The notes under the pieces are model-generated. The model was not told the origin of the DNA. It saw nothing but the letters and a program-made list of their open reading frames with translations, and made no database searches. A program made the position numbers and the translations under genes. A stretch of DNA of 63,942 nucleotides, filler included, from Myxococcota bacterium (lineage in GTDB: Bacteria > Myxococcota_C > UBA6777): NCBI GenBank assembly GCA_023150835.1. It is 3 parts of 3 records of this genome, joined end to end, with 100 filler letters (N's around TTAATTAATTAA, not from the genome) between each part and the next. Parts side by side here need not be neighbours in the genome. Positions count along the whole stretch, not along the records: positions 46,946 to 63,942 come from JAKLKB010000143.1; 2 more parts are not named here. One strand, written 5' to 3'. Position 1 is the stretch's first letter. Each line of letters opens with the position of its first letter. Positions 9,432-63,300 of the stretch are shown one piece after another.

Positions 9432-9432
9432 G

Positions 9433-11347: not shown

Positions 11348-11350
11348 ACG

Positions 11351-26169: not shown

Positions 26170-26221
26170 ACATTTTCTATGGATTCATTCGGGGAGCCGC
26201 TTGGGTGGTTGTGAGCGCGAT

Positions 26222-29600: not shown

Positions 29601-29933
29601 AATAGGCTCCTTCTGTTGAGGGGTACGAGTGTCGGGCCACAGGGAAAGAGACGTCGTTTGTAGCGGAGAGGAAGGGCTGTTGCAAGAGGCCAGCAGAAAG
29701 GACCGAAGGTACAAACGTTGCGCAGCAGAGTTCTGTTGTGCTGGTCGGGTTGCAAGAGGCTAGAGACGAAAGACGGAAGAGGATACTGCGAGTCGCAGGG
29801 AGGTGTATGTTGGGGGATGTGGGTGTGAAGAAGGCGAGGGTTTCGTGGCTGCGGGTCGCATGGAGGTGAATGTTGGAGATGATGAAGAGGGCGGTCGCGG
29901 GTGAGATGAGGGGAGAGTGCGGTGGTGCGATCA

Positions 29934-30245: not shown

Positions 30246-30455
30246 AGCGGCGCGATGGGAGTGTTACGATCGTGGTTGGTGGTGCGTCTGTGTGGATCGA
30301 GGGGTCGATGTGGTCGGAGGTCTGGGTCTTGTGCGTGCGGCGTATTGTGGTTTGAGAGGTGGTTGTGGTAGGCAAGATATCTTGCATTTTGGAGAGGAAG
30401 CAGCCGTTGTTTGGCGGCGTAAGACGGTCGTAGGAACCGCGTGGAAAGGTGAGCG

Positions 30456-31649: not shown

Positions 31650-31731
31650 AGCGTTTGTCGCAAAAGTCTGTTTGAGGCTGAGAGAGGCTTGTTGTGTTGT
31701 GAGCGGGCGCTGGCGGTAAAGGTGTATTGGG

Positions 31732-34320: not shown

Positions 34321-34518
34321 GGTTGTGCGGAGATCGAAGGCGAGGATGTGCTTGTTTTGTGGGGGCCGTTGTGTTAAGGGGGTGACCGCGTTACGCACCG
34401 TTTTGGGGCGGTATCGTCTGAGTCGATAAAGTCCTTGCGTCCCGTTGGGGATGGGTGGACGGTGCGAGACGACGGCGTCGATGCCGAGACCTAGGTTGGC
34501 TTTTTGGGAGCAGAGAAG

Positions 34519-35283
34519 ATGTTGAAGATACAAAGAAAACAACCGCCAAGCCTCGATCCGTTTTTACCCGAAGGGGCGGAAACGCCGATTCGGGAGGAAG
34601 CGTTGAGTGTGCCGACGGAGGTAAAGGTTGAGCGGATAGCGGATCTTTTTGGGCAGATCATGGAAACCCTTGGTCTGGATCTGCACGATGACAGCTTGCG
34701 GGAAACTCCGCAGCGGTTTGCAAAGATGTATGTCCAAGAGATCTTTCGCGGCTTGGATCCACAACAACGCCCACGCATCGCGACTTTTGAGAACCGTTAT
34801 CAGTACAAACAGATGCTCGTGGAGCGTGATATCCGTTTGCATTCGTGTTGCGAACATCATTTCCTGCCGATCTTGGGGCGTGCGCATGTGGCGTATATCC
34901 CCGATCGCCATGTTGTCGGTCTTTCGAAGTTGAATCGCGTGGTTGATTATTACGCCCGTCGCCCACAAGTCCAAGAGCGTCTAACGCAGCAGATCGCGGC
35001 AGCTTTGCAACAAGATCTGGAAACGCCCGATGTTGCGGTATGGATCGAGGCGAGTCATTTGTGTGTGGCGATGCGGGGGATACAAGATGAAGCGAGTGTG
35101 ACGGTGACATCGGCCTACGAAGGGCGTTTTCGAGAGCCAACGATCCAGTTACAATTTCTTGCGGCGATCGGGAAGGTCGGGAGTGAGGCGGCTGCGCAAA
35201 CAGGGCCGTTGGCATTGTTGATCCAAAAGGGCAAGTCTTCTGCTTTGGACGATGAAGGCGAATCTTCCGATGCGTTGGACTGA
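34519..35283 (+). CDS. folE: GTP cyclohydrolase I
   Basis: DDSLRETPQR, CEHHFLP, GLSKLNR, RPQVQERLT, HLCVAMRG. Confidence 0.96.
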   Translation: MLKIQRKQPPSLDPFLPEGAETPIREEALSVPTEVKVERIADLFGQIMETLGLDLHDDSLRETPQRFAKMYVQEIFRGLDPQQRPRIATFENRYQYKQMLVERDIRLHSCCEHHFLPILGRAHVAYIPDRHVVGLSKLNRVVDYYARRPQVQERLTQQIAAALQQDLETPDVAVWIEASHLCVAMRGIQDEASVTVTSAYEGRFREPTIQLQFLAAIGKVGSEAAAQTGPLALLIQKGKSSALDDEGESSDALD

Positions 35284-36643
35284 TCCGCCAAGCGATCACG
35301 ATCATTTGTTGGTGCTGTGGTGGTGTCCATTTCTGTTGTTTTCGGGCTTGTGGGGGCAATGGGGGCCGAGTGGTGGTTGGGATGCGTTGTGGTTGGCGTG
35401 GGGTCAGATGGGCGGAGGAGTCTGGTTGTTGTTGGCGGTGCATTCGTGGTTGGGGGGAGAAGGGGGGCGGGCGCGTTGTTTTTTGCGCGGGGCGACGACA
35501 AAAGCCCAGCAGACGGGGATGATGTGCCTTGATGGATTGGGTGGTGGCGCGTTGTGTTTGGCGTACGTTGGAGGGTACGATTGGGCGGCGCTTGCGTTGG
35601 GTGTTGCGGTGGTGTCGCGGATCTTTTGGGTGCGAAAACAGCGGGTGTGGTTAGAGCAAGAGGGCGTCTGGTTGGGTGGTTTTCCTTTGCAACGGATGCG
35701 GTTTGTGCATCTTCGGCACGTGTGGAGGGAGGGCGGATGTGTTCGGCTGCGCGATGAGCGTGGTCGTGGTGTGGACATCGAAGCAGCGGATGCGCAAGAG
35801 GCCGAACGATGGGAAAAAGCGATCTTGGAGGCTCAACAGGCTGGGTTGGCGGGGATGGAAGAAGGTTTTGTTGCGCAGCGGCGGGGCGAGGGCGGGTGGG
35901 AGGTGAAGTTCGGCAGCGGAGAAGCCTTGTTTGTGTCGTCGGGATGGTCGTTGGATGCGATGCAAGGGCAGGGTGAGAGCCTTCGATCGAAGCGGTGGCG
36001 GGTGGTCTTGGGAGGGGTGCTGTGTGGTGTGTGGTGCGCGATCTGGTGGTTGGGGCTTGCGAAGGCGGGGGGGATGGCGTCGTCGTGGGGGCGTGGAACG
36101 TTGCATTTTCTTCTTGGTTTGGGGGGCATTGTTTTGGTGTGTTGTCAGTCGGGGGAGGCGTGGGTTCCAAAGGGAGCGACGCTTCGATGGTTCGGGCCGA
36201 TGGGCGCGTTGCGTTGTTATCGAGGGATCGTGCGAATAAGTCTTATTGGGTTGGGGGTGTGGTTGTTGTGGGATCTGATGCGATTTGCGGTGTGGGGAAG
36301 CGCGTTGCATTGGACTTCGTGGTGGATCTTGGTATCGAGTGTGTTGATCGTGGCGTTGGATCCGTCGGGTGCGATGGCTTGGATGGTGCGCGTGAAGGGA
36401 GAGCCGTGGATGCGGCGTGTGGGTTGGCGGGAACGGATGCCGATCGAGAGATGGGAGTCTGTGGCGTGGTGTCGAGGTGTTTTGTTTTGGAAAGAGGGCG
36501 GTATCGAGCGATGCGCGGTTTTACCGTGTCGTGTCGATGCGAAAGCAGCGGCGATGTGGCTGTTTGGGGAGATCGAGGAAACGCCCGACGAAGCCGACTC
36601 AACGGCGCTTGAGGTAGCGGTCCGTGAGGACGAGCGAACATAG
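35252..36643 (+). CDS. Hypothetical multi-pass membrane protein
   Basis: Long ORF overlapping the folE end, with several hydrophobic segments; W/G/V-rich. Confidence 0.6.
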   Translation: MKANLPMRWTDPPSDHDHLLVLWWCPFLLFSGLWGQWGPSGGWDALWLAWGQMGGGVWLLLAVHSWLGGEGGRARCFLRGATTKAQQTGMMCLDGLGGGALCLAYVGGYDWAALALGVAVVSRIFWVRKQRVWLEQEGVWLGGFPLQRMRFVHLRHVWREGGCVRLRDERGRGVDIEAADAQEAERWEKAILEAQQAGLAGMEEGFVAQRRGEGGWEVKFGSGEALFVSSGWSLDAMQGQGESLRSKRWRVVLGGVLCGVWCAIWWLGLAKAGGMASSWGRGTLHFLLGLGGIVLVCCQSGEAWVPKGATLRWFGPMGALRCYRGIVRISLIGLGVWLLWDLMRFAVWGSALHWTSWWILVSSVLIVALDPSGAMAWMVRVKGEPWMRRVGWRERMPIERWESVAWCRGVLFWKEGGIERCAVLPCRVDAKAAAMWLFGEIEETPDEADSTALEVAVREDERT

Positions 36644-36660
36644 GTGTCACTTGTCGCCAA

Positions 36661-36785
36661 AAAAAAAGCCGTGTTCGCGAACATCCAAGCGACAGAGTTG
36701 TTGTCTTGAAAAACCTGCGATCTCTTCGCCGATACGAGGTCAAGGGAGCCGCGACCTTGGAAGTGGGGTATGGGGTGAAACCCCA
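36661..36785 (-). repeat. Dispersed ~125-bp structured repeat, copy F
   Basis: CCGTGTTCG...CAAGCGACAGAG...CTCTTCGCCGATACGAGGTCAAGGG...TGGGGTGAAACCCCA. Confidence 0.85.
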
Positions 36786-36825
36786 TCACATAATACGAAA
36801 TCCGCAGGGTGTGTGATCGTAAAAC

Positions 36826-37022
36826 GTAGGGGCAGCCCCCTGTGGCTGCCCAACAATCGGGCGTCTACGCACGAATCGGCTTTATTGAGCGCTAGTTTTT
36901 TCCATTGCTCCCCCTGTAGCTGCCCAACAATCGGGCGTCTACGCACGAATCGGCTTTATTGAGCGCTAGTTTTTTCCATTGCTCCCCCTGTGGCTGCCCA
37001 ACAATCGGGCGTCTACGCACGA
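36826..37022. repeat. GTAG-family REP element amplified as a 74-bp tandem unit (~2.5 copies)
   Basis: GTAGGGGCAGCCCCCTGTGGCTGCCC-AACAATC-GGGCGTCTAC; CTGCCCAAC recurs at 36846, 36920 and 36994. Confidence 0.88.
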
Positions 37023-37093
37023 CCCTCCGATCGCACATCTTTCGGAGGTCGTATAAGTCCAACCGCGTAAGTCCTATCAACAAATTCCAAGGA

Positions 37094-38032
37094 TCAAGGC
37101 AATTGTTCTTTGAGTTCTTTGATGCGTTTTTTGACGGAGGCATTGAGAGGGTCGAGAGTGAGGGCGAGTTGGAGCTTGCTGATGGCGCCTTGGACGTTGC
37201 CTTTGAGGGCGTCGGCTTCGGCTTCGCGGGAGAGGACATCGACTTTTTGTTTGCGAGGGGCGACCATCTGTTCGTAATTTTTCTGAAAGGCTTCTTGTTG
37301 TTTCACGTGCCCTTGAGAGGCATGGGCGGCGAGAGGGTTGGTATAATTTCCGATCTTGGCGTCATAACTGGCGCGTTGTGCGGGGTCCATCAAGACGCGG
37401 TAGGCTTCGGTGATGTGTTGGAAGACGTCTTGGAGCAGTGCGTGGAGTTCTTGGGGGAGTTTGCGGTAGTGCTGATCGGGGTGGTATTCTTTGGAGCGCT
37501 GGCGGTAAGCATCGCGGATCTCTGAAGGGGTCGCATTTTTAGGGAGTTTGAGTAGGTTGTAATAGTCGCCTCGGCGAGCGTAAAGTTGAAGGCTTTCCAG
37601 TTGCTTTTTGAGGCTATCTTGTTCTTCGGTGGGGGGGAAAGAGCCGCGATGTATGGGCTGTTGGCCTTGGGGGACGAAAGTGTTGTCGTCGAAGGTCATG
37701 AGGTGTTCAAGTTCTTTGCGCCGTTGAGGAGTCATATCCATCAAGCGGATCTCCATACCGGGCTGACCACCGAGGAGATCGGCTTCTTCGGCGCTGATCA
37801 CTTGATCGACCTCTCCCCAACTCCAGATCTCGAAGCCTTCGATGCTTTCGAGCAAAAAGACCAATTGGACGCGTGTTCCGATGGGCTTGTTGCGCGGTGA
37901 TTTCACGAAGTAATTTCCGCGCCCGATTTGGCGTTCGTACTCTTCGCGGAAACGTTGCATATTGTTGAAGCGGATACGGATCGCCAGTTCGCACTGGGGT
38001 CCGGGTTGATTGGAGATCTGTGGAGCCTTCAT
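37094..38032 (-). CDS. TIGR02266-like PilZ domain plus DnaJ domain protein
   Basis: IRFNNMQRFREEY...IGRGNYFVKS..KPIGTRVQLVF...GMEIRL; J domain DYYNLL...YHPD. Confidence 0.85.
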   Translation of the reverse strand: MKAPQISNQPGPQCELAIRIRFNNMQRFREEYERQIGRGNYFVKSPRNKPIGTRVQLVFLLESIEGFEIWSWGEVDQVISAEEADLLGGQPGMEIRLMDMTPQRRKELEHLMTFDDNTFVPQGQQPIHRGSFPPTEEQDSLKKQLESLQLYARRGDYYNLLKLPKNATPSEIRDAYRQRSKEYHPDQHYRKLPQELHALLQDVFQHITEAYRVLMDPAQRASYDAKIGNYTNPLAAHASQGHVKQQEAFQKNYEQMVAPRKQKVDVLSREAEADALKGNVQGAISKLQLALTLDPLNASVKKRIKELKEQLP

Positions 38033-46581: not shown

Positions 46582-46703
46582 GTTCCGCGCTAGATATCGG
46601 ATGGGGCTTACGCGTCTGCTCTGTTGGGTGGGGCGCTGCCCCATACGCGCCTTGTTAAGGTGGAAACACCGGATAGTCTAGCCTGATCGCCGTTTCTTTT
46701 GTC

Positions 46704-46845
46704 GCCCCCCCCTCAATCCCCCCGTGAACGGGGGGAAGTTGGAACGGGCAGCGTCTGCGCGTCGTGCATACAGCGTGTGTCATGGAACACCAAAACCTCG
46801 CTGCCTCCGACTTTCGCTCCCTCCCCTGTTCACGGGGGAGGGCTG
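46704..46845. repeat. Palindromic REP-like doublet (CCCCCCGTGAACGGGGGG / CTCCCCTGTTCACGGGGGAG), truncated by contig end
   Basis: Two related hairpins in inverted orientation about 100 bp apart. Confidence 0.7.
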
Positions 46846-46945
46846 NNNNNNNNNNNNNNNNNNNNNNNNNNNNNNNNNNNNNNNNNNNNTTAATTAATTA
46901 ANNNNNNNNNNNNNNNNNNNNNNNNNNNNNNNNNNNNNNNNNNNN
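46846..46945. other. Artificial contig linker (N44-TTAATTAATTAA-N44)
   Basis: Identical to the first linker. Confidence 0.98.
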
Positions 46946-49098
46946 CCGTCGTTGTAGCCGATGCGACCGCCAAGGGTGGTGTTTTCGCCGAGCTTGGTGT
47001 TTGCGTTGGCTTCGCCGTTGAGTTTGCCGTCGTTGTAGCCGATGCGACCGCCAAGGGTGGTGTTTTCGCCGAGCTTGGTGTTTGCGTTGGCTTCGCCGTT
47101 GAGTTTGCCGTCGTTGTAGCCGATGCGACCGCCAAGGGTGGTGTTTTCGCCGAAGCGTCGGGTGATATCGGCTTCGCCGTTGATCTTGCCGTCGTTGTAG
47201 CCGATGCGACCGCCAAGGGTGGTGTTTTCGCCGAAGCGTCGGGTGATATCGGCTTCGCCGTTGATCTTGCCGTCTTGGTATTCGATTTGTGCGTTGGCGC
47301 GGGTGTTTTCGTCGATTTGGGAAGACACGCGACCGCCGCCTTGGATCTGTCCGTCTCGGTAGGCCACGCCCCCTTCGATGGCGGTGCGTTCGTTGATCTG
47401 ACCGTTGACTTGGGCGCCGCCTTCGATCTTTCCATCGCGGTAAGAGATCTGGCCTTCTGCGGTGGCGTCTTTTCCGAAGCGCGTGCGCACGTTGGCATCG
47501 GCTTCTTGGAGTTTGCCATCTTTGAGGCGGAGGCCGCCGTTCAGGTCGGTGTTTTCGCCGAGGCGGGTGCGGCCTTGAGCGTGTGTGGTGAGGTGTCCGT
47601 CTCGATCGATGACTGCGCCGCCGCGTAGCTCGCTGTGTTCGTTAAAACGGTGCTGTGCATCGACGCCCAGTTCGGTCATTCGGCCATCTTCAAAACGAAC
47701 GCGGCCATCGACGTTGGTGCGTTCGTTGAGGGCGGTGTGTGTGTTGAGGGCGACTTGGCTTTTGCCTTCGGGATCGACGCTGATTCGGCCATCCACGGCG
47801 GTGCGTTCGCCTACTTTGGTTTTGCCTGTGATATCGCCCGACCAACGGCCATCTGCGTGTTGAAGATCGGTGTTGATTTGGGTGTTTTTGCCGAGATGCG
47901 TTTCGGTTTGGATATCGGCCTTGTGGAGTCGGCCTTCTTTGAGGGTGACGTCGGCTTCGACCTGTGTGTGATCTGCGATCTTGGTGGCGATATCGCCATC
48001 AAGGGTCAAGCGACCGCGACTATCGACGGTGGCGGTTCCTTTGAGGGTGGTGTCTTCGCCGACTTTGGTGGTGATGCCTGCGCTTGCGCGGCGAAGTTGA
48101 TCGTTTTCAAGACCCAAGGATGCGGTGAGTTTGGTATCTTTGCTGACTTTGCTTGTGACGGAAGCATCGGTGCGGAGGTCGCCTTGTTTGTCGATGCCGA
48201 TCTGTCCGGTGAGTTTGGTGTGGTCTGCAAGCTTGGTATCGCCACCGACGTGGCCGTAGACACGGCCATCGTCAGCGCGGATCTCGCCCTTCAATCGGCT
48301 ATCTTGGCCGAGGCGAGTTTCGGCTTTGACGTGACCGTTATCGACTTGGTTGTCTTTGAGGGCGACCTCGCCTTGGAGGCGGGTTCCTGTGCGTGGGTTG
48401 CTTTCGGCTTGGACGGTTCCGTTGAGTTTGCCGTCGTTGAGTTGGAGGTCGGTGTGGAGGGTGGCGCGTTTGTCGACTTGGGTGTGGGTTTGGAGTTCAC
48501 CGTTGAGTTTGCCGTCTTGGTAGTGGGCGCGGCCTTCGAGGGTGGTGTGATCTTTGATTTGGCTTTTTCCATCAAGGCTTGCGTAATTATTTCCGTTGTT
48601 GCGTCCGACTTCGGCTTGCCATGTGTGGCGATCGTTGGGTTGGTAGTTTGCGCGGACGCTGGCGTTGCGTTCTTCGTTGGTTGCGTTGGCGCGGCCTTCG
48701 ACTTGGAGGCCGTTGATCGGGCGCCATTGGACGTTGCCTTGGCCCGAAGTGCGTCCTTGCGCATCCATCGCAAGGCGTCCGTTGGCGCTGGTGCGCTCGC
48801 TGTCATGGGAGCCTTGGGCGGTTCCGCCTTCAAATCCGCTGCGTTTGCTGGTGTGTTTGATATCGGCGTAAGGAGTGAAGCGCTCCGCAAGGCTGCGCAG
48901 TCGGGAGAAAAAGCCTTGGGAGGGGCGTCGACTGTCTTGGAGGGCGGTGTTTCCGCCTTGGGTGAAGGAGTCGGCGCGGCGGGGTTCGTGGAGCGCGGGT
49001 TGTGAAGGAGAGTGGACGGGGGCGGTGGTGGAGGTCGAGCGTGGCGCTTGAACCGCAGGGGCGGGGGGCTGTTGTGGTTTTCGGGTGTTGATGTTCAT
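46946..49098 (-). CDS. Tandem beta-hairpin repeat protein (>=22 repeats of 27-28 aa), 3'-truncated
   Basis: AAGGAGAG RBS; repeats such as TTLGGRIGYNDGKLNGEANANTKLGEN; near-identical 81-bp units at 46946-47275. Confidence 0.85.
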
Positions 49099-49341
49099 CT
49101 CGGGTGGCTCTCCTTACCGTTCGGATAAAAAGGGGGGTTTTGTGTGACAAGAAGGTGTCGTTTGTATTTTCGCCGAGATCAGGGGGTGTGTTGCGGATCG
49201 CATCACCTCGGCGCAAAGATTTCGGGCGAGGGTACACCAAACAGGAATAGAATCAAGGGGATTTGGGGCGCTTCTTCACAAGGCCAGTCATGTGTGCAGA
49301 GCAGGATTGTTCACGGGCGACGGTGGCGCGATCCAACGCCG

Positions 49342-50160
49342 TCACAAGGCGAGCAGGGCGCGCAGATCGTCGGGTAGGCCAAGGTGAAGATCGCGTGTTC
49401 CGTAGTGGATGACTTTCCATCGCGTACAGCCGCGCCCCATCAGAAGGGCTTTTCCGCCAACGACAGCGAGGCTCGAAAAGGTCGAAGGCAGGGGGGCAGG
49501 GGGCTTGGGCGGGAGAGGTGAATACATCTGATCCGAAAGGTGCAGAACCGCGAAGAGATAGCGGCGGTAGAGGACGATACGGAGTTTCAAAAAGGCGAAG
49601 TAAGCGAGGTGATGGTGTTGCCATTGACGGGTTTGATGAAGCAAACTGCGGGTGCAAAAGTCTTGGTGCTGGAGAGACAGCGTTGGGGGAAAGGCCGAGG
49701 CCGATAGCGGCGGATCTTGCGGGCGGGTTTGGGGAGTCTGTCGCTCAGCAAGAACAAGCGCTTGGAGGTTGTGGCGTGCGGTGGGGGATAGCGATATGGC
49801 GTCTGTGGAGCGAAAGGGCCGATACCAAGGCTGTTTGGAAAAGAATTGTTGGAGGTCAGGAGAGCGGAAACGTGCGCCTTCGAGGGCAAACAGCGTGTTG
49901 CGTAAGCGGCGTGTGTCGAGCGGAGCGAGGCGAGCAGGCCATGTCGGATGCAGCGGATGTTGCAGCAAGATCGCTTGCAGCTTGGAGGGGTCGGTGGGTT
50001 GTTCAGAGAGAAGATCGCGCAACACATCGGGAAATCGGGGGCCTTGGTAGGCAGAGGACGGGGTGGCGTAGAGCAAGAGTAGCCCGAACAAAAGCGCCCA
50101 AGCCATCGAGAGCTTGCGATGAGCAAAGGGGTGTGTTGAGAGGTCCGATCGGGGAGGCAT
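49342..50160 (-). CDS. Secreted YARHG-domain-like protein
   Basis: Hydrophobic signal; RRLRNTLFALEGARFRSPDLQQFFSKQPWYRP...LS...HNL matches the YARHG pattern. Confidence 0.72.
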   Translation of the reverse strand: MPPRSDLSTHPFAHRKLSMAWALLFGLLLLYATPSSAYQGPRFPDVLRDLLSEQPTDPSKLQAILLQHPLHPTWPARLAPLDTRRLRNTLFALEGARFRSPDLQQFFSKQPWYRPFRSTDAISLSPTARHNLQALVLAERQTPQTRPQDPPLSASAFPPTLSLQHQDFCTRSLLHQTRQWQHHHLAYFAFLKLRIVLYRRYLFAVLHLSDQMYSPLPPKPPAPLPSTFSSLAVVGGKALLMGRGCTRWKVIHYGTRDLHLGLPDDLRALLAL

Positions 50161-50169: not shown

Positions 50170-50739
50170 TTAAGCCCAGCGCACGCGCAGGGGCGCGCTG
50201 CTGCGGGGTTCTTGGGGGATGTCGGTGATCTTGACGCGGGAGAGTTGCTCTTCGGGGAGGTGTTGGATTTGGTGTTCGATATGGCGAACGATGCGCTCAC
50301 ATCGGGGGTCTCGTTCGTGTTGGCGCAGACCTTTGACAGCTTCCAACAGGCGGTGTTCGAGTGTTTGGTAGAGATGCTGCCAACGCTCAAAGGTGCTGCT
50401 CTCTTTGCTGCGCAGGATCACACAGCTAAATATCCGCATCTCTAGGTTCATGCGTTGCGCGAGAGCGTACATCAAAAGACGACGCCAAGCTTCGGCAGGA
50501 GGAGAGAGGCGCATCTCAAAGTGGAGCGTCCATGGCTCGTCTTGGAAGCGGTAGGCGGGTTTGGCTGGAGGGAGCAGGTGAGGGTGCCAGATCTGGCGTT
50601 CTTCGCCGAGTTCCGACGGTCGGATATCGTAGCGTTCGATCATGCGTTCGGCGAGTTTTCGGGCTTCTTGACCTTCTGGCTTTTCGCTTTCGCACGCAGC
50701 GAGGCGCAAAAGAGCGCGGACTTTTTCGATCTTGTTCAA
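50170..50739 (-). CDS. DUF2786-like domain protein
   Basis: N-terminus KIEKVRALLRLAA....EGQEARKLAERMIERYDI matches the DUF2786 pattern. Confidence 0.7.
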   Translation of the reverse strand: MNKIEKVRALLRLAACESEKPEGQEARKLAERMIERYDIRPSELGEERQIWHPHLLPPAKPAYRFQDEPWTLHFEMRLSPPAEAWRRLLMYALAQRMNLEMRIFSCVILRSKESSTFERWQHLYQTLEHRLLEAVKGLRQHERDPRCERIVRHIEHQIQHLPEEQLSRVKITDIPQEPRSSAPLRVRWA

Positions 50740-50742: not shown

Positions 50743-52839
50743 TCAGACTCCGCCTTCGGGGGCATCGGGGTTTGGGGGAGCATCCATGCGTTCGCCTTCG
50801 GAGATATCGATGTTGGGAGAAGCGAGGTGAAGTTCTTCGGCGGCGAGGATCGCTTCCATCTTGATCGGATCGGCGACCCACGACGGAAGCCCCGTGGTCA
50901 AGAGGATCACCGAACGTTCGACAACCCACCGACCGTTGTAGAGGATGCAGGGTTGGTCTTCGGGCCAATCCAACGCGCCTGCGAGTTCATCGGCTTGGCG
51001 AAGGATCGGACGCACATCGCCACCGTAGACTTGTTCTGCGACGTTGAGTACGCGCCGAAACACCGTATTCCATGCGTCGTTGGTTTCGCCTGCATCTTCG
51101 ACCAAGTCAAGCCCCACAGGCAAATTTTCGAGATGGCGCATAAAAAAATCGATCAGGGACTCTCGGATCACACGGCCATGTTGAGGAGCGATCATCTGCG
51201 GGGCGGGGGAGAGTTGGCGGATGCGTTGGATCACACGGGCAAGCGCTTTGTTCATCGGCATATAGAGCTGGTGAAAGGCTCGCATCCCTGTCCAATCGCT
51301 GTCATCGGCGTATAAGCCCACAGCTTCGCGGGCTGTCAAGCCCCCAAACAGATCGCCTGTGTAAAGCACCCGTGTTTCGGGGTCGTACAACATGACCGCC
51401 CCTGCAAAGTGGCAAAATGGCGAAGGGACGGGAACCAAGGTGTGGCCTGTTTCGATCGCGAAACCACGCGGATATTTGTCAGTCGAAAGAAAGCGCTCGC
51501 GTGGCAGATTGTAGTGTTGCACCAGACGCCACGTATCTTCGGAGCAGATGATGTTGGCGCGTGGTGCGTAGCGTCCAAGCAGCAAGGTGGTCGAAGACGC
51601 GACATCGGGATCTTGGTGGTTGATAAACACTGCCGAGATCTTGTCCATCCCACCGATCAGAGAGGACACTTTGGCTTGTACGGTTGCGAAATCTTGGCTT
51701 GAGCCCGGGTCGATCAACAGATTGAACTGAATCTTTTGCCCATTTTTGTTGCGCCCCCGAAAGATCCGCAAGTAGGGGTTGGCAAAAAAGATCGACTTGG
51801 AAGGCCGTGAACCCACCCAATAACTCGACGGCGCGATCTCGACCGCAAACAGATGTTCGTTGGTTGTGGTGGCTGTCTTGGGGGCGGGTTTGGGCTTGGT
51901 TGCGTAAGGCGACAAGGCTTCCCAAAAAGCTTTCATGCTTTCGTAGCGTTGTTGGGGATCTTTGGCGAGTGCGCGAAACAAGACTTGTTCAAAGCCGTTG
52001 TCAAACGGAGCCGATGGATGTTGAGGGAGGGGGCGCGGCGTTTGCCAGACATGCGCTCGTAGCAGCGATACGACATCTTCTTCGCTGCGTTTCTTCGGCA
52101 TATCGAACGGCAAGTAGCCCGTAAACATCTCATAGAGCATGACGCCTAAAGCGTAGATATCGCAACGGTGGGTCACTTGTTCGCCCAAACATTGTTCAGG
52201 GGACATGTATTCGGGTGTTCCGAGCGCTCCCACAGTGCGTTTTGTGCTGTCTTGGATACTACGAGCGATCCCAAAATCGAGCAATTTGACGTAGAGTGGG
52301 TCGCTTTCGTGCTGAATTAAAAAGACATTGTCTGGCTTGAGATCGCGGTGGATGATCCCCTGCTGGTGTGCGGCGTGTAACGCTCGGCAAAGCTGTTCGG
52401 CGATATGGAATACTTCTTCTCTTTTCGGTAGCTTATTCTTTTTCATCCACAACGACAGATCTTGTCCTTGTAGGTATTCCATTACAAAGTAGTAGCCCAA
52501 GTTTTCTTCATGACCAAAATCGTCAAAGATTCTGACGATATGGTTGTTTTTTTCTGAAAGAACAGCGGTCACTTGGACTTCTTGCTCAAAGCGCGATAAG
52601 GATTCAGGCTTTTTCTGCTGGTGGCTTTTCAGTAGCTTGATGGCGCGCCGAGGGTTGTGTTGCAGGCCGATATGCCTCGCCGCATACACGACACCGAAGC
52701 CGCCTTCGCTTAGTACATGCTCTAGCCGATATTTTCCTGCGATCAGCTTTTGGGGAAAAGAGCATTGTGGGCAAAAGTCTTGATCTTTGATGATCTCTTT
52801 TTGGCAATTTGAGCAGAAGTTCTCTTGTTGAGCGCTCAT
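50743..52839 (-). CDS. Zinc-ribbon Ser/Thr kinase fused to an oxygen-binding di-iron (ODP-like, metallo-beta-lactamase fold) domain
   Basis: CSNC..CPQC; EGGFG, AIK, HRDLKPDN, DFG, GTPEYMSPE; then NPYL, IDPGS, HQDPD, PFCHF, TGDLFG, FHQLYMP, APQHG. Confidence 0.9.
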   Translation of the reverse strand: MSAQQENFCSNCQKEIIKDQDFCPQCSFPQKLIAGKYRLEHVLSEGGFGVVYAARHIGLQHNPRRAIKLLKSHQQKKPESLSRFEQEVQVTAVLSEKNNHIVRIFDDFGHEENLGYYFVMEYLQGQDLSLWMKKNKLPKREEVFHIAEQLCRALHAAHQQGIIHRDLKPDNVFLIQHESDPLYVKLLDFGIARSIQDSTKRTVGALGTPEYMSPEQCLGEQVTHRCDIYALGVMLYEMFTGYLPFDMPKKRSEEDVVSLLRAHVWQTPRPLPQHPSAPFDNGFEQVLFRALAKDPQQRYESMKAFWEALSPYATKPKPAPKTATTTNEHLFAVEIAPSSYWVGSRPSKSIFFANPYLRIFRGRNKNGQKIQFNLLIDPGSSQDFATVQAKVSSLIGGMDKISAVFINHQDPDVASSTTLLLGRYAPRANIICSEDTWRLVQHYNLPRERFLSTDKYPRGFAIETGHTLVPVPSPFCHFAGAVMLYDPETRVLYTGDLFGGLTAREAVGLYADDSDWTGMRAFHQLYMPMNKALARVIQRIRQLSPAPQMIAPQHGRVIRESLIDFFMRHLENLPVGLDLVEDAGETNDAWNTVFRRVLNVAEQVYGGDVRPILRQADELAGALDWPEDQPCILYNGRWVVERSVILLTTGLPSWVADPIKMEAILAAEELHLASPNIDISEGERMDAPPNPDAPEGGV

Positions 52840-55072: not shown

Positions 55073-57199
55073 TCACGTTTGTTCGTTGATCTTTTTTAAG
55101 ATCGATTCACTACAGCCACAACGCGGCTGTCCACAAGGAGCCACCTCCTTGTTCATCGCAGACAGCGCGATCTCCGCGTTGGATTGGGGGGGGTGGAGCT
55201 TCGCATGGCTGTGTTCGTGGTGGTCGTGTGGATGGGTATGTTCGTGGTGGTGGTCGTGTGGATGGGCATGTTCGTGGTGGTCGTGTGGATGGGCATGTTC
55301 GTGGTGGTCGTGTGGATGGGCATGTTCGTGGTGGTGGTGTTCGTGGATGTGGTGTTCATGTTCATGTTCGTGAGCATGGTGTTCGTGAGTGTGGTGTTCA
55401 TGTTCATGTTCGTGAGCATGGTGGGCGTGTTCGTGGTGGTTGTGGGAGTCATGGGTCGGGGGGGCATACGCAGGGATGAGTTGGCCGAGCAAGAAGCGAG
55501 GGCCATTGCGCAACAGAGTGCTGAGTGTGATCAGGCCGAGAATCCCGAGGCAGACGATGCTGAGCATGGAGTGGTTGTGATGGTGATGGAGATGGATCGG
55601 CGGGGGAGGGACGTGGAACAGCAAGTCGACGCTCCAACCAAGAAGACAAGAGACCCCGATCATGGAGGCCGCGAACGCGAAGGCGACACGTTTGTTGTGA
55701 AGGGCGCTAAGGACGCCAAATGTCGTGAGGTTGGTGGCGGGGCCTGTGAGCAAGAACGCGATGGCAGCGCCGGGAGAAAGCCCCTTGGCGATCAACACGG
55801 CAACAAAGGGCGTTGCGCCCGAAGCGCAAACATACACGGGCATACCGATCAAGGCGGCGAGCGGGACTTGTATCGCAAAGGGCAGCGTGGCGAGCGCGCT
55901 GGTTGGGAGCAGAGGTTGGAGCGCGGCGGCTAGAAAAAGACCTGCTAAGATCCAAGGCAATGTATGATCTGCATTTTCACCAAATCCGTAAGAGAAGCCT
56001 TTGTGGAGTTGGCTTTTGAGCGAGGGAGTGGGGGCATCGGGAGTGGAAGAGGCCGTCGTAAGGGGGGAAGGGGTAGGGATCAAGCGGCTTACGAGCAAGG
56101 ACACGCAGACCGCAGCGATGGCAGCGGCGGCGAGGCGCAGCCATGTCATTTTTGCACCGAGCAGCGGGATGGATAGCAAGATCGCATCGATCCCCAGTTC
56201 AGGAGTGGCGATCAAAAAGGCCATCCCTGCGGTCGCTGGTGCGCCTGCTCGCACAAGGCTTTGATACAGCGGAACCACACCACACGAGCAGATCGGCAAG
56301 GGCAGACCAAACAACATCCCCCGAGCACTTTGCGATAACGCAGAGCCACGCCCCAACCAAGACACCGCCGCAGGACGCAAAAAGGCAAACATCAGGCTTG
56401 CGCCGATGTAGGCCAAGAGCAACGCAGGTGCGCTTTCAAGCGCGATCTGCCAAAAGGCTTGCCCCATCGAGTTTCCTGCGTGGTGCGCGTGTGCGGTGTT
56501 GTGTTCGAGCGAGATGCCCCATAACAAACCGATCCCCAACAATGCGCCGAATCCGCTCCATACAGGCGATACATCCGAAGTTTTGGGTTCGTGCTGTGGA
56601 TGCTCGAACAGGATATGCAAGAGGCTTCCTGCCACGAAGGCTTGGAACCACGCCATCATCTGCAAAGGAAGGCTCTGATGAAGTGGCTTGCCTGCAAGAT
56701 AACCCACCGTCGTGGCAGCGGCGTTAAGGAAGATCACCCACCAAGCGATCCGTGCGCCTTTGCGTGGAATCAACAACCATGCGATCGCTAAACCCACGGG
56801 GATACGGTGAAGTACGACAGCCAGCGCCAGAAGCTTTTCTTCTGTGTGGGCGTGTCCTGCTTCAGGCAAAGCAAGCGCGACACCATCCAATACGGCATGG
56901 ACCCCCAAACCAAGCAGGGCCAACATCCCCAACCATCCGAGGCGATGGGGATTTGCGGGCGCGACTTTGCTCCAAAATCGATCCGCCCCAAGCGGCAACA
57001 AGATCCCCAGCAACGCAGCGAAGATCACCCCCCCTCCTGCGATGTGGAGGCTGTGTGGTAACAAGTGCAGCAACACCAGTCCCACTACAGACACCAAAAG
57101 AAATCCATCCAAAACAGCCAAACTACGGGCTGCTCGTCGGATGTAAGGATACAAAAAGGGGCCAAAAAACAGCGGAAGCAGGCTCATCCAGAAAAGCAT
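55073..57199 (-). CDS. Metal permease: ZIP-like N-half fused to DUF318/SO_0444-like permease, with His-rich tail
   Basis: VHAVLDG and LHRIPVG (ZIP-like); PLPICSCGVVP, FLIATPELGID, VYVCASGATP, FLLTGPATN; about 80-aa His-rich tail with 27-bp repeats. Confidence 0.85.
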   Translation of the reverse strand: MLFWMSLLPLFFGPFLYPYIRRAARSLAVLDGFLLVSVVGLVLLHLLPHSLHIAGGGVIFAALLGILLPLGADRFWSKVAPANPHRLGWLGMLALLGLGVHAVLDGVALALPEAGHAHTEEKLLALAVVLHRIPVGLAIAWLLIPRKGARIAWWVIFLNAAATTVGYLAGKPLHQSLPLQMMAWFQAFVAGSLLHILFEHPQHEPKTSDVSPVWSGFGALLGIGLLWGISLEHNTAHAHHAGNSMGQAFWQIALESAPALLLAYIGASLMFAFLRPAAVSWLGRGSALSQSARGMLFGLPLPICSCGVVPLYQSLVRAGAPATAGMAFLIATPELGIDAILLSIPLLGAKMTWLRLAAAAIAAVCVSLLVSRLIPTPSPLTTASSTPDAPTPSLKSQLHKGFSYGFGENADHTLPWILAGLFLAAALQPLLPTSALATLPFAIQVPLAALIGMPVYVCASGATPFVAVLIAKGLSPGAAIAFLLTGPATNLTTFGVLSALHNKRVAFAFAASMIGVSCLLGWSVDLLFHVPPPPIHLHHHHNHSMLSIVCLGILGLITLSTLLRNGPRFLLGQLIPAYAPPTHDSHNHHEHAHHAHEHEHEHHTHEHHAHEHEHEHHIHEHHHHEHAHPHDHHEHAHPHDHHEHAHPHDHHHEHTHPHDHHEHSHAKLHPPQSNAEIALSAMNKEVAPCGQPRCGCSESILKKINEQT

Positions 57200-57359
57200 G
57201 GGGATTTTGTCGTCCTTTGGAGGGAGTCTTGGTTTTGGCGCGAACAGAACACCTTGCAACACTTTGCTTTTTGTGCGCGCCTTTGCTATAGCTCGGTCTT
57301 GTAGCATGGAGTGTGCGTCTTTGCGCAACGAAATCTATCTATCTGAGGGTGCTTTTTCG

Positions 57360-60300
57360 ATGAACCAAGCCTGTCCACAATGTGCGTTTCCTTTCGCTGA
57401 GGGGCAACAAGACGCCTTCTCCTTTTGTCCCAAGTGCAGCTTTCCCTTGATGCGTGTCGCGGGAAAATATCGCCTTACACGCTTGCTTGGCGAAGGGTCG
57501 TTTGGGCGGGTGTATCTTGCGCGTCACATGAACTTGCGTCACAAACCTGAGCGCGTCATCAAAGTCATGCGCTCCGATGTCTTGCGCCAACACGGTATGG
57601 AAGAGCGCTTTTGGCGTGAGGTACAATTGACGGCTGCGCTCTCTGAGCAAAACGCGCATGTTGTCCGTGTATACGACGATTTTGGCGAAGAAGAAGGACT
57701 CGGATTTTACTATGTGATGGAGTATCTTCGCGGACGTTCCTTGAAAGAAGTGTGTCGGGCTTGCGGCCCACTTCCGACTCCACTGGTTTGGCATATCTTT
57801 CAACAGCTTTGTGAAGCCGCTACGTTGGCTCACAACGAAGGCATCATCCACCGCGATCTCAAACCCCAAAATATCTACCTGATCCCGCGAGGTCGTGACC
57901 CTTACTTTGTCAAGATCTTTGACTTTGGGATCGCCAAGTCGCTTGTTGAAGCCAAACAAGCCGATTGGACACGCGGAGCGCTCGGAACACCCGCGTATAT
58001 GGCTCCCGAACAATGCAGCAATCGCCAAATCGACCAACGCACCGATCTTTACGCGATGGCTGTGATCCTTTACGAGATGCTTTCTGGACGGACGCCCTTT
58101 CTTTTTGATGGACTTGCCCAAGGCACTTCCCCCGATCCGATGGCGATCTTGATCGCTCACATGACGCAATCACCCGTCCCGCTGACCAAACAAGCCCCTT
58201 GGCTGGCGATCGATCCCGCCTTGGATCAAGTCATCCTCAAAGCCCTTTCAAAAGATCCTGCCGAGCGTTTCGAGAGTGTCGAGTCTTTTTGGCGAGCGAT
58301 TCTTCGCTTTCTTCCGCCCGATACCTTCCAACAAACTTTGCCGACACCTCACGAACTGCTTGGCCCCGAAGCCCCTGTCCTCTCTTCAGATGGCTGGTCG
58401 GCAATCGATTCGGTCGAAGAATCCGACATCTTGACTCCTGTTCCTTCTTCTTCGGCTCTTTGGAAAACACCCCCTGAGTCGGCGGAAAAACCCAACGAAC
58501 ACGCCGATGCCTCCGATGAATACGCCTTTCCTTCTTCCGCCTTCGCTGAAAAGAACATCGGTCGCTCCATGATGTGGCCCGAACGCACGCTGGATCTCGG
58601 TGGAATCCTGACCCTGCGCAAAGAGCAGCAGACCCTTGCGCTTGGCGAAGGTGATCTTCTCGAAGAGGTCGGACTTTTTTCTGAACAAGAAGAAGTCAGA
58701 CTTTTCTCTGAGCAAGAAGATGTCGTAGACCTGTTAACAGAAGATCATACCCCCGATCCACGGCGTTTGGTCGAAACCCTCAACTTGCGTGTTCCCACCG
58801 AAACAGCACTCGCCGCCGACGCCTTGGATGGAGCCTCGCACACTGCCGATGCTTCGCAAAAAGCCCAGACTGCCCTCGATGTCTCGCCTTTTACACAACC
58901 TTTGCCTCGCCCTGCGTTTGTGCCGATCTGGAGCGATGCACTTCCCCAGCCTCATCCCTCTGAGCCGCCTGCTCCCTCTCTCCAAGAACCCACCCGTGCC
59001 TACGGAACTTTTCAAGACGAAGCATCCTTCGCGGCGTCACCTTTTCAAAGCGAACTATCCGCCGAAGCCGCGCCTTATCAGAACGAAAAAAGCACCGTCG
59101 AAGTCTCGCCTTATCAGAACGAAAAAAACACCGTCGATGCCTCCTTCTTCCCAAACGAGAAAACTACGGAATATCCGACGTTTTCTTCTGGAAAGATGCT
59201 TGATCCACTTTCCACACAACCGCAAACAAACCTTGTTTCTCCGCTTTTTCAAGAAGAACAACAAACTCTCGAAGCCAACGCTTTTCAACAGGCCCCATCC
59301 TCCGACACCTCTCGTCCTGAAACGTTTTCTCCTTCCCGATCTCCCGTCGAATCTATCAAGATACCGCTCTTTCTTGCCGAATCATCGCCTTCTTTGTCTT
59401 CGCTTCCTCAGGAACGCACCCTTGAACTGCAAAACAAAAAGCGTGCGATCTTCTATGAAACGGACAACAGCGATACCGAACTTTCCGAACGTAAAAAGCG
59501 CAAGACCCTCCACGAACAGCCTTTTTCAATGCCCCCCGTCCCTCCTGTCTCGTTGACCTTGCCGAAACTGCCTGAAACAGAGCCGTTGGCTTCTTTTGCT
59601 TCTGTTCCTTCCACGCCTTCGGCTGCTTCGGCTGTTCCTTCTTTCGCGCCTTCGGCTGTTCCTTCTTTCGCGACTTCGGCTGCTTCGGCTGTTCCTTCTT
59701 CCTCCGCTGCTCTTTCTATGCGATCCACTTCTCCGCAAGAACTACCCGACTTCTCCGAAGACAGCGAACCTCCTGTGCTTCTGGCCGCAGAAGATGAACG
59801 GCCTCATTTCTCCGAAGAAAACGAGCCTCCTGTGCTGTTGGCCGCAGAAGACGAAGTCTCCGAAGCAGCCGAACTTGATGACGCTCCTGTGCTGTTGGCC
59901 GCAGAAGACGAAGTCTCCGAAGCAGCCGAACTCGATGACGCTCCTGTGCTGTTGGCCGCAGAAGACGAAGTCTCCGAAGCAGCCGAACTCGATGACGCTC
60001 CTGTGCTGTTGGCCGCAGAAGACGAAGTCTCCGAAGCAGCCGAACTTGATGACGCCCCTGTGTTGCTGGCAGAAGAAGACCCGTTGCTCTTGGACGAGCA
60101 ACATCGTTCCCGACCCAACGCACCCACTCAGACAGAGGAATCCCCTGTTCTCTTGGAAGAATCGCCTCCCGTGCGTTTGGATCCCTCACCCGCAAACAAA
60201 CCAACGCTCTCGCCTCACGAAGCCGTCACCGTCGCGATCCCCAACCCCCTCCACAAAAAAACCTCGCCGCCCACAGAATCTTTTTCCGCAAACTCTCCTT

Positions 60301-63300
60301 CGCCTTCTGCTGTTTCGTCTTTCTTGCCTCCTTCCTCTTCTCCTACCGCCCGACCCACCGTGCCTTTCGCTCCACCACCTCCCCCGTTTTCTGCGCCTTC
60401 TCTCTTTTCGCCAGCCGCTGCTTCGCAGATCAGAGGAACATTGGGACTCGCCAAACCTTCGGATAATGCGATACCTTCGCCCTCTTTCTCCGGCATCTTT
60501 ACAGATCCGCCCGCTCCACCCGACAGCGGGTTTCTTCGCGAACTTGACCGATTGCTTGATGGCTTGGGAACTCATACACGCAAAGACAAAGCCGAACCCA
60601 GCGCCGAATTGATCCTTGGAACAGATGATCTGTTTGAAAGCAGCGAAGCCGCAGAGAAACCAACCCCAAAACCGCCCGAACCCAGCGTCGAACTGATCCT
60701 TGGCACCGATGACTTGGTCGAACACGTTCAAACGACCGAACACCCTGCTGTTCAACCACCCGAACCCAGCGTTGAGTGGGTTCTCGGGCAAAACGATCTG
60801 ATCGAACCAACCCCGCAAACGGACGAACATCCGCCAGTTGCGAAGACATCTGCGCAAACGGACGAACATCCGCCAGTTGCGAAGACATCTGCGCAAACGG
60901 ACGAACATCCGCCAGTTGCGAAGACATCTGCGCAAACGGACGAACATCCGCCTGTTGCGAGCGACGCGATCCCACAAGCGACCCACGAGATGCCTGTTCT
61001 TTTGGACGAGGCCGAGCCGACACAAGATTGGCAAGACACCCTTGATAGCCGCGAATTGGACGCAGTATCGCAAGGCCGTCTCTCGCAGATCCTCGATGAA
61101 ACACGCGAACCAGCCGCTCTTGAGACGACAACGGAACCTCCATCAGCCGTTGTTGGAGCGGTAACGGAACCCAAAAAAACCGCGCCCTTGTTTGCTTTGC
61201 CGAAACAAGACGCTCGATCTGCGTTTTCTCCGCCCAAAAATACGCCGCTTGCGCTCTTGATGTCTAATGAAGACGATGATGATCTGCCTCCGCCTCCGAC
61301 CTCCGAAGTGGATATCTCTCGATTCGCATCCGCAGACGAACCCGATGCAGAGGCGATCCGCAAAGCGTTGGTGGGGACGTTGCCTCCGAATACTCCGCTT
61401 ACCACGTCTGCCTTCCAAGCGCTTTTTGAAGAAGCCCAAGCCGCAAAAAACAAAGCCGACACCGCAACAAAGTCCGATACGCCCACCTTTTCGGCAGAGC
61501 AGACGCGCCACACTCTACAAGATGATGACGCTGTGATGGCCCCCAAGTTGGCGGTGTTGCTTGAACAGGTGCTGCCCGAGGAGATCGACGAGGCGGATGC
61601 TCTCGAAGGCTTCGATGCTCTCGAAGTCTCTGATGCTTCAAAAGAAGAGGCGCTTCTTCTACTTTCTACACCTGCAAAACACGAGGCCGAAAAACAACAG
61701 CCTACCGACCAAGATCCCGCATCGCTCGCGCTTTCCGAGAACGAAGACGAAGAGGACGAACCCGCCGCATTTTCTGCGCCTCCTTCCTCTTCTGCCCGTC
61801 GCCTTCGTGCTGATGCTTCCCTCGCAAAACCCGGTGCTTTCGCTTCTTTGCTTGACGAAGCCCACAAAACCGAAGCGTTGATCGAGGCCACCTTCGGCCC
61901 TTCGACAAAGGCCCCGTCCTCCTCGTCCTCCGATACTCCTCGTAGATCAGACGAAGAACCCCTCTCTCCCACAGCGGCGACGGCTGCATCGGCGAGTGAT
62001 GCGACGATCGCGCACAAAACTCCTGTACCATCCGAACAAAAGCCCCCATCCGTTCGCTCGGCCTTTTCTATCCAAGCCGTCCTGTTGACGGACGAAGAAG
62101 CCAAAGAACTCCAAATCTCCACAGATCCGACAGAAGAAGAGCAGATCGCTGCACGCTTGTTGAAGGACGAAAGCCAAGACGGCCTTTTGACCGAAGAGTC
62201 ACTTCCTTCTTCACTTCCTGCCCGACGTGCCGAGACTTCTGGCGTGGATCGCAAAGCGCCCTTGCGACTCTCTCCTACTTCTCTCTTGGTCGATGAAAAC
62301 ACGCTATTTGAAGCCGAAGATGCTGCGTTGCGACGACGCCATCTCGTGATCGGCGGCACCTTGGTGCTTTCGGTCTTGATGATCTTCGTTGCGCTTGGAA
62401 CCTTGCTTGGCTGGTTTTCCTCCAAACCGACTTCTTCTCTTCAGCATCCCTCCGCACAGGCAGGCAAAACAAACGAACCCCCTGCGCGAAACGTCCTTGC
62501 TTCCGCCTCCAAAAACGATCTGCCTCTAGATATCCGAGACGTACCTCCATCCCGCTCTTCTGAAACGCCCGATATAGGTTCTTCTCAGCCTTTGCGCTCC
62601 CATCCTCCTCTCTCTCCAACGGCTCGCACTGCACCTGTTGCTGTTCCTCCTGCTGTCACTTCTTCGCCAACGGCGCTTTCTGTCCAAAAACAACCGTTGT
62701 CTCTTCCATTCACACCACCCATGCCTCCCACGCCACCGGCGATTCCGCCGCTACCTGCGGATCCAAACGCGCTGCCTGCGGTTTCCAACGAACCTCCAAC
62801 CCCGCGCATCGAAACCATCAAACCCCCACAACCTTCGTCGCGTGCTCCTGCCTTGCCCTCGCCTGCTTTGCCGCGTGGGCGACCCCGCAAACGCCCAAAA
62901 GTTGCAACGGCTACCTCTTCAAATGACCGCTGCCCCGAAGGGATGGCGTGGATCGCTGCGGGGGCTTTTCCGATGGGCAGCGCCGTGAGTGATCCCATGC
63001 ACTTCTTTGGCGAAAAAGCGTTGGTGCGCACCTCTACTTCGGGCTTTTGTATCGACCGCTACGAAGCCCCCGGCAAAGGTGAGATGCCCATCCGCGATAT
63101 CTCTTGGAGTGACGCCAAAGCGCATTGCGCCACAAAGGGCAAACGCTTGTGTTCGGAGATCGAGTGGGAACGCGCTTGCAAAGGTTCTTCTGAGCGGCGT
63201 TTTCCTTATGGAAACACTTTCCAACCCAACCGATGCAACACCCGTGATGCCAAAGGCCGCAACCGCAGCATCCGTCGCGGAGGCTCCATGCCCCGATGCA

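Follow-up and report, generated by a model that had tools for sequence, protein, structure and literature searches.

The giant minus-strand gene whose 5' part lies at 46946..49098 in an assembly of a Myxococcota bacterium (GCA_023150835.1) encodes a protein with a long array of beta-hairpin repeats. The window, by which we mean the whole stretch of DNA that was analysed, is 63,942 nucleotides long. We regard the array as a new type of hairpin repeat within an uncharacterised Myxococcota cassette; the architecture of the protein is solid, while its location and function are matters that we infer. The gene is real, is probably transcribed and encodes a protein of about 1,700 residues; the organisms that carry it are uncultured myxobacteria from sludge. 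Long single-chain amphipathic beta-sheets are rare, and the well-studied examples are the membrane barrels, which reach 36 strands, and the lipid belt of apoB100, which has 120. In the bacterial lineage described here, a simple hairpin unit of 27 residues appears to have given rise to a regular sheet of 44-54 strands.

The array consists of 22 beta-hairpin units of 27-28 residues, or 44 strands, and occupies residues 128-717 of the encoded fragment (46948..48717, minus strand), as defined by autocorrelation, unit alignment and AlphaFold2 prediction with an alignment. BLOSUM autocorrelation of the whole array peaks at lag 27 (mean 0.80), and in its older part (residues 140-540) there is a lag-28 peak of 0.14, compared with a maximum of -0.20 in 200 shuffles. 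Segmentation of residues 128-717 by hand gave 21 whole units and one that is cut. These results uphold the proposal of the initial annotation that the gene encodes at least 22 units, each of two alternating strands joined by DG and GE(N/D) turns. The turns of the unit are D15-G16 and G2-E3-N4, and between them hydrophobic and polar positions alternate: large hydrophobic residues are found at positions 1, 7, 11, 13 and 18, small or hydroxyl residues at 5, 9, 20, 22, 24 and 26, and the intervening positions are polar or charged. The hydrophobic (inner) face, with a mean hydropathy of +1.71, draws Leu, Ile, Val and Tyr from one strand of each hairpin and Gly, Ala and Thr from the other; the opposite (outer) face is charged or polar and has a mean hydropathy of -2.81. 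Gly makes up 15% of the composition, Cys is absent, Leu and Glu are scarce, and Asp, Asn and Thr are abundant. Such a composition is typical of surface proteins, unlike cytoplasmic ones, and leans towards export.

The youngest part of the array is a run of 81-bp tandem copies at 46946..47274 (minus strand; Tandem Repeats Finder period 81, 4.1 copies, 95% matches). The last two whole units are identical at 80 of 81 bases, and the cut unit is identical to the unit before it at 47 of 47. The recent expansion that had been suggested from near-identical 81-bp copies therefore holds, the last three copies being 99-100% identical. Repeat number differs among homologues, with at least 22 units in this gene and 27 in the orthologue from a third genome of the genus (G002). 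The young units of that orthologue (L019:9385-10332, residues 536-851) alternate between forms ending ...KVNGQANANTK and ...KWGGGVNGNTK, so the unit amplified there is one of 54 residues, not 27.

The leader that precedes the array (residues 1-127; 48718..49098, minus strand) was delimited by composition, hydropathy and a predicted local distance difference test score (pLDDT) below 50. Pro, Ser, Thr and Gln together form 38.6% of it, the most hydrophobic 12-residue stretch of the first 40 residues averages only -0.18 on the Kyte-Doolittle scale, and AlphaFold2 assigns a pLDDT below 50 to residues 1-10, 12-18 and 20-129, so that the leader is predicted to be disordered. All of this agrees with the earlier description of a P/S/T-rich leader that lacks a signal peptide. 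When proteins P0001, P0012 and P0014 are set side by side, a conserved motif, FFSRLRSLAERF..Y..K..SKRSGF, is seen at about residues 61-92 (48823..48918, minus strand), and it is common to orthologues of two genera.

The window is made up of three contigs (C50, C51 and C84) of a 239-contig, 7.56-Mb assembly, placed end to end. The giant gene starts contig C84: its 5' part of 717 codons is supported by the list of open reading frames, by translation and by orthologues. The ATG is at 49098-49096 on the minus strand, with a ribosome-binding site, AAGGAG, read directly from the sequence 11 nt upstream (49110..49115, minus strand); a scan of 49050-49400 for promoters and terminators found none. The frame is open to the contig end at 46946, where an artificial joint (46846..46945, no strand; 44 N, TTAATTAATTAA, 44 N) begins, so the gene does run off its contig as had been claimed, and it is the joint, not biology, that causes the truncation. 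A second joint of N and TTAATTAATTAA is found at 23384-23483, and C50, C51 and C84 are unrelated contigs. Because the window consists of three joined contigs, the genes to the left of 46846 are not true neighbours of the repeat gene.

Judged by the orthologues, about 2.9 kb of the 3' part of the gene is missing. It was not recovered from its own assembly (G000) when the C-terminal portions of P0002, P0010 and P0011, or a 918-residue 3' fragment from the sister genome of the genus (G001), served as queries, and blastn found the repeat DNA on no other contig among the 239. The presence of young, near-identical repeats at the contig end indicates that the truncation is an effect of assembly. Contigs of DNA run X4, which looks independent, are likewise fragmented over 46996-47274, and no listed piece spans that interval. 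A 2,655-nt contig of the same run overlaps the repeats and continues past them; its first 30 letters, read on the gene strand and translated by hand, give a stretch of nine residues, eight of which match the last units of the 3' fragment of G001. Two long open frames overlap the array in another strand or frame (47635-49005, plus strand, 456 residues; 46890-47519, minus strand, 209 residues). These frames are by-products of the repeat composition, and a public protein fragment of 80 residues (P0003) switches into one such frame.

Pieces of the giant gene are present in the RNA libraries of three studies. In one library, an RNA contig of 1,883 nt spans 47245-49127 with zero differences at a depth of 23.3, and the next contig begins at 49377 with a depth of 9.2, although such libraries may contain DNA and their contigs give no expression levels. 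RNA cover is missing over the intergenic interval 49139-49267, where the DNA contig is continuous. The pattern weakly suggests that a separate transcript starts about 30 nt before the ATG.

The complete architecture was drawn from a full-length orthologue and from the independent 918-residue 3' fragment. The sister genome G001 holds a copy that is 96% identical and is also cut at a contig end, with the 918-residue 3' half on another contig. The third genome of the genus, G002, has a complete orthologue of 1,670 residues (71% identity), and a genome from another genus of the family (G004) has a homologue of 1,311 residues (28% identity). The other 36 of the 41 genomes searched were negative, except that MORN_2 proteins were matched in G014, which is unrelated. 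In these genome searches, then, the hairpin array was found only in its own small lineage, which the reference taxonomy treats as a phylum of six genomes, all of one family. The orthologue of 1,670 residues begins with a leader (residues about 1-122) in which sequence comparison finds the same internal motif; unit segmentation then gives an array of exactly 27 units, or 54 strands (residues 123-851). About 800 residues of further domains follow the array: a linker (852-940), a Gly/Ala-rich domain of long amphipathic strands (941-1141), ten EF-hand loops located by pattern search (1156-1583) and an aromatic C-terminal tail, ...NFFGF, whose last residue is Phe. The loops were defined as twelve-residue D-x-[DN]-x-[DN]-G elements, and they carry Asp at position 12, as dockerin loops do. 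Pfam assigns to the same protein EF-hand_1 at 63.8 bits (cut-off 25.4) and Dockerin_1 at 30.2 bits (cut-off 22.9).

The family is defined by the Gly/Ala-rich C-terminal beta domain. Judged by the orthologues of the giant protein, this is an unnamed family that is specific to the Myxococcota. Conserved blocks of this domain (P-P-x-A, G-P-F and V-D-V) are present in the orthologues of G001, G002 and G004. The genome under study encodes two smaller paralogues, of 675 and 543 residues, and all six genomes of the lineage have between two and six family matches each. A database search with one paralogue returned 59 proteins with a median length of about 577 residues. The named entries among them, which include proteins of Stigmatella, Archangium, Hyalangium and Myxococcaceae, are annotated as 'hypothetical' or 'EF-hand domain-containing'. 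A hydrophobic stretch near the N-terminus, taken here as 12 residues with a mean hydropathy of at least 1.8 within the first 45, is lacking in all 63 family proteins; this proxy is not equivalent to SignalP. The proteins share other features too: 47 of 63 start with M-x(1-2)-[I/V], 58 of 63 are devoid of Cys, and an aromatic tail such as FFGW, FSGW or WFGF ends 47 of 63.

A gene for a TPR protein of about 390-460 residues lies directly downstream of the family gene in all five of the lineage cassettes examined. Alignments among the five TPR partners extend along the greater part of each protein (23-72% identity, E 1e-24 or better). The set stands apart from a generic TPR lipoprotein that is encoded elsewhere in the genome, and by eye the partners have no hydrophobic signal stretch. 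A scan for related metagenome loci, based on a three-row alignment, gave 29 loci of which 22 could be scored: 14 have a partner homologue downstream on the same strand, three have an adjacent, divergent one (in two cases apparently from a single organism) and five have none. To judge from these sequences, the C-terminal module and its TPR partner form an unnamed two-gene cassette that is widespread in the Myxococcota. In the other members of the family the middle region is a polar stretch rich in Ser, Thr and Lys. Since the array was found only in a small lineage while the module and the partner are widespread, it seems to have arisen by expansion, within that lineage, of the family's variable middle region. 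The literature on Myxococcota that deals with EF-hand, TPR, chaperone and type III themes gave nothing on the family at the level of search results. The cassette does occur in cultured genera, so its biology can be tested in the laboratory.

The orthologous partner gene of the genome itself is located at the start of a 4.5-kb contig, C212, and is 95% identical to the partner in G001. Contig C212 starts not in the giant gene but in an intergenic dispersed repeat element, with the partner gene behind it. A GC-rich element with a short palindrome occupies 46700-46845, at the end of C51, and the first 120 or so bases of C212; this GC-rich palindromic element is probably a cause of contig breaks. 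A fourth partner-like TPR gene is found at C29:20790-21824 (minus strand), and the 4.8 kb before it, to the contig end, contains no recognisable family gene of at least 200 residues.

Our structural predictions favour one continuous antiparallel ribbon. AlphaFold2 was run on residues 402-717 with a nine-row alignment made of two orthologues and of non-overlapping windows of the gene's own and orthologous arrays, placed in register by MAFFT. The resulting model has a pLDDT of 89.3 and a predicted template modelling score of 0.62, values that should not be read as independent support from many lineages, because most of the helper rows are repeats of the same kind. The model is a single up-and-down antiparallel meander of 23 strands, each of 9-14 residues, that includes the youngest units; its turns have 2-5 residues, mostly two or three. 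The units are thus predicted to form one continuous antiparallel amphipathic beta-ribbon, with an estimated width of about 4 nm and a length, for 27 units, of about 25 nm. The register would shift by two residues per unit, and a sheet staggered in this way could in principle close to a barrel or coil. Bulky residues on one strand and Gly or Ala on the next would create ridges and grooves, which suggests face-to-face packing of two sheets. An earlier, single-sequence AlphaFold2 model of the whole 717-residue fragment had a pLDDT of 49.9, with the older units as long hairpins and the youngest as a parallel beta-helix that could be overlaid on bactofilin and on SufD-like proteins to about 3 Å; this model was not used for conclusions.

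The top structural neighbours of the aligned model are all transmembrane barrels, namely TonB-dependent receptors, MtrB, ushers, LptD and VDAC, with Z up to 19.2. Barrel matches span Z 13-19, and those at about 19 are barrels of 22-26 strands. Superposition is nevertheless poor, with a root-mean-square deviation (rmsd) of 24-30 Å over about 300 residues and a Foldseek template modelling (TM) score of 0.37 or less, and for this reason the 23-strand fragment is not a closed barrel of known size; a fragment of 23 strands cannot show how 54 strands behave. It is our reading of the model that the fragment would be an open sheet with the topology and strand length of a barrel wall. Two structural options had been put forward at the outset. 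The extended one-sided sheet fits better, the aligned model being one continuous amphipathic sheet. A known soluble repeat fold, MORN or beta-solenoid for example, had been named as an outcome that would count against the proposal, and it was not clearly obtained. The beta-solenoid was present in the first model and disappeared once the alignment was used. MORN-variant repeats are linked to the array weakly, through a motif, but the Pfam MORN_2 profile gave no match, and no MORN structure is among the best 50 of either list of structural matches.

We consider it about an even chance that the protein is a calcium-dependent structural ribbon that is exported by a non-classical route. The protein would be synthesised in the cytoplasm, where the TPR partner would hold it, and would leave by a non-Sec route, possibly guided by the conserved C-terminal tail. 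Outside the cell, calcium would order the EF-hand region and the ribbon would act as a long structural spacer or a surface fibre, its hydrophobic face buried on a second ribbon or on a lipid surface. We lean slightly towards export of some kind, a lipid-acting variant included, because the composition is surface-like, the calcium loops are dockerin-like, the C-terminal end is conserved and repeat number changes quickly. A number of points weigh against an exported ribbon. The first, single-sequence model placed the youngest units in a parallel beta-helix, and six of the eight helper rows in the alignment that gave the hairpins were other windows of the same or orthologous arrays. The 3' domains are deduced from orthologues, the 3' part of the gene itself not being in the assembly. 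No secretion genes adjoin any cassette examined, the other neighbours varying by locus, and the combination of no signal peptide with a cytoplasmic-looking partner fits a cytoplasmic role equally well. Such a role, in which the protein and its TPR partner form a scaffold at the membrane or at a lipid body, with the short conserved N-terminus and the aromatic C-terminus targeting the membrane and the EF-hands acting as a calcium switch, is the less likely reading but a serious competitor. It would account for the missing signal peptide in 63 of 63 family proteins, with none visible in the partners, and for the M-x(1-2)-[I/V] start in 47 members. The nearest motif relatives of the array are hairpin repeats of the MORN type, which in eukaryotes are mostly intracellular membrane tethers. 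On the other hand, two of the three bacterial MORN_2 proteins that we found have a hydrophobic leader, one with a Cys, and we read them as exported lipoproteins; moreover, a composition unlike that of cytoplasmic proteins, ten dockerin-like calcium loops and a tandem copy number that changes fast among close relatives all argue against the cytoplasmic scaffold.

The amphipathic sheet might instead act directly on lipid, either as a released ribbon resembling the apoB100 belt or as a closed single-chain pore of at least 54 strands in the membrane of prey, and we think this unlikely. In strand length (9-14 residues), in the tightness of the turns at either edge and in its strict alternation of in and out, the sheet matches barrel walls; transmembrane barrels supply all of the best structural neighbours (Z up to 19.2), and the shift of two residues per unit would correspond to the stagger of a barrel whose shear number equals its strand number. 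Gly-rich sequences, the absence of Cys from 58 of 63 members and a dedicated TPR partner are features that the family would share with type III translocators. That a 120-strand amphipathic sheet can sit on lipid is shown by apoB100 (PMC11839476). The modelled fragment, however, matches no closed barrel (rmsd 24-30 Å, TM 0.37 or less), half of its inner face is Gly, Ala or Thr and a mean hydropathy of +1.71 seems weak for a surface that faces lipid, the alternation of large and small residues between strands suggests packing of protein on protein, and there is no contextual link to predation. In its boldest form, a secreted sheet of at least 54 strands would wrap, bridge or perforate lipid membranes while the TPR chaperone and low calcium keep the producer's own copy inert, a scheme to which we give little credence. 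Closure of such a sheet would give a barrel with a diameter of about 9 nm, as estimated from strand number and stagger, and with a strand count well above the 36 of SprA. A classical outer-membrane barrel of at least 44 strands, larger than SprA and inserted via Sec and BAM, is extremely improbable. Amphipathic antiparallel strands of barrel length, sub-threshold matches to TorF (15-20 bits), OMP_b-brl (13), the Autotransporter beta-domain (17.3) and the DNAJC11 barrel (24.4), and the terminal Phe of the full-length orthologue are in its favour, but with some 800 non-barrel residues after the array that Phe does not form the C-terminus of a barrel. Those residues themselves, the want of a signal peptide of the kind plainly visible in a protein encoded nearby in the same genome, a partner that looks cytoplasmic and a model that is not closed are all contrary to it. 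A bactofilin-like polymer of parallel beta-helix is scarcely more credible. Pfam scores the 717-residue fragment at 35.8 bits for Bactofilin (cut-off 27.9), and residues 563-717 of the single-sequence model superpose on BacA (2n3d) with Z 8.4 and an rmsd of 3.0 Å over 101 residues. That score is a sum over five stretches of the repeat, the youngest 190 residues alone reach 18.1 bits, and the orthologue with 71% identity has no match at E 0.01 or better; bactofilin winds with a period of about 18 residues, not the 27-28 of the array, and with an alignment the same residues fold as hairpins (pLDDT 79-89 as means of 10-residue blocks). We therefore reject the Pfam match as a repeat artefact: it is summed over repeats, does not recur in the orthologue and disagrees with the better model.

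Within contig C84, the neighbours of the giant gene are on its upstream side. The nearest, at 49342-50160, encodes a YARHG-domain protein with a signal peptide. Further upstream, on the same strand as the giant gene, a gene at 50743-52839 (minus strand) encodes a fusion protein that combines a Ser/Thr kinase and a metallo-beta-lactamase domain of the ODP type and has a zinc ribbon at its N-terminus. The gene for a DUF2786 protein, at 50170-50739, follows it. The kinase and YARHG genes hold the same position in genome G002. A protein of 2,101 residues that is encoded at 57198-63503 (plus strand) starts with a protein kinase domain and has an FGE-sulfatase domain towards its C-terminus. Elsewhere in the window the GC skew is very strong, reaching -0.45 in 4001-14000 and +0.37 in 26001-38000, and there is a low-GC stretch (0.43) at 24001-26000; these stretches may mark other long genes of odd composition or an island.

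Comparison with known families gave few leads. No Pfam or NCBIfam family fits consistently, NCBIfam having nothing above cut-off, and the sub-threshold matches (porin-like families, Hexapep, autotransporter barrel) differ from one fragment to another. A word-indexed homologue search with the 717-residue fragment scored none of 7,997 candidates. In the ESM Atlas the best score of the fragment was 0.83, which is below the useful range, and paralogue P0011 retrieved only an unnamed Myxococcota cluster at 0.94. Searched by sequence, the PDB had no match to the fragment or to a profile of the C-terminal domain, and the full orthologue gave weak EF-hand matches only (E 0.014 or worse). The one recurrent relative is a MORN_2 protein, which was matched in an all-database phmmer search (E 7e-4) and was the sole match outside the family for the unit profile (E 2.3e-5; the next was 0.15, among 48,353 background frames). 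Outside the lineage, the genome search matched only frames of G014, and the two that were tested are MORN_2 proteins. Both kinds of protein have tandem hairpin units with the motif E-N-x-x-L-x-x-(E/R)-x-x-Y-x-D-G-K-(I/L)-x-G, which covers the first strand and the D-G-K turn. The array differs in its unit of 27-28 residues rather than 22-24 and in its strictly two-faced strands of 9-14 residues; the three bacterial MORN_2 proteins found are small (199-346 residues), and the two from G014 begin with a hydrophobic leader. Pfam MORN_2 (PF07661) matched neither P0001 nor three array fragments at E values up to 10, although HMMER filters may hide weak matches. It is because this model fails to match and because the unit is longer that we treat the array as a new type of hairpin repeat, perhaps distantly related to MORN_2 or convergent with it.

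Among exported proteins, RTX and other type I substrates resemble the protein in lacking an N-terminal signal, in being rich in Gly, Asp and Asn and free of Cys, and in having calcium sites near the C-terminus and a conserved C-terminal end. Here, however, the calcium sites are of the EF-hand/dockerin type, no ABC exporter genes are nearby in the cassettes examined, and no RTX family was found on the full-length orthologue in Pfam (E 0.01 or better), which speaks against RTX nonapeptide repeats; type I substrates are not known to have a TPR partner. Another calcium-dependent, secreted repeat protein without a Sec signal is Protein S of Myxococcus xanthus. The TPR partners were also compared with type III chaperones of class II, and that identity was rejected: the five partners score 35-74 bits against NCBIfam LcrH_SycD, whose cut-off is 104.8, and the matches are those of generic TPRs. 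SycD/LcrH chaperones usually have about 160 residues, compared with about 390-460 in the partners. The genome contains one full and one partial FHIPEP (SctV/FlhA-type) gene (C131:35691-37727 and C25:2543-3451). A link to type III secretion did not emerge: the 12 neighbours of the full FHIPEP gene show no other type III or flagellar family (Pfam, E 1e-4 or better), and a TPR protein near the FHIPEP gene has only generic repeat similarity to the partner family.

As a structure, the array shares with bactofilins (PF04519) a repetitive beta character, disordered proline-rich ends and a formal Pfam match on the fragment, and differs from them in period, in predicted fold and in the failure of that match to recur in the orthologue. 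The large outer-membrane barrels, such as SprA (36 strands), LptD (26) and the TonB-dependent receptors (22), have the same meander, strand length and amphipathic pattern, but the array protein lacks a signal peptide, has tight turns on both sides and large non-barrel domains after the array, and is paired with a cytoplasmic-looking partner. SprA is the largest known barrel according to a preprint (bioRxiv 10.64898/2026.03.07.710327), where its 36 strands are stated as the initial annotation had given them. The regularity of the 27-residue unit makes the array a tractable model for the solubility of long sheets, for the burial of a hydrophobic face and for possible action on lipids. A further comparison is with the beta-belt of apoB100, a continuous amphipathic sheet on lipid with 120 strands that average 11 residues (PMC11839476). 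ApoB has no sequence kinship with the array, and it has a signal peptide, large inserts among its 120 strands and an N-terminal domain of the lipovitellin type. The predicted ribbon and the belt (the latter as described in PMC11839476) are nevertheless alike in being very long, continuous, amphipathic antiparallel sheets within one chain, each about 4 nm wide and made of strands around 11 residues long.

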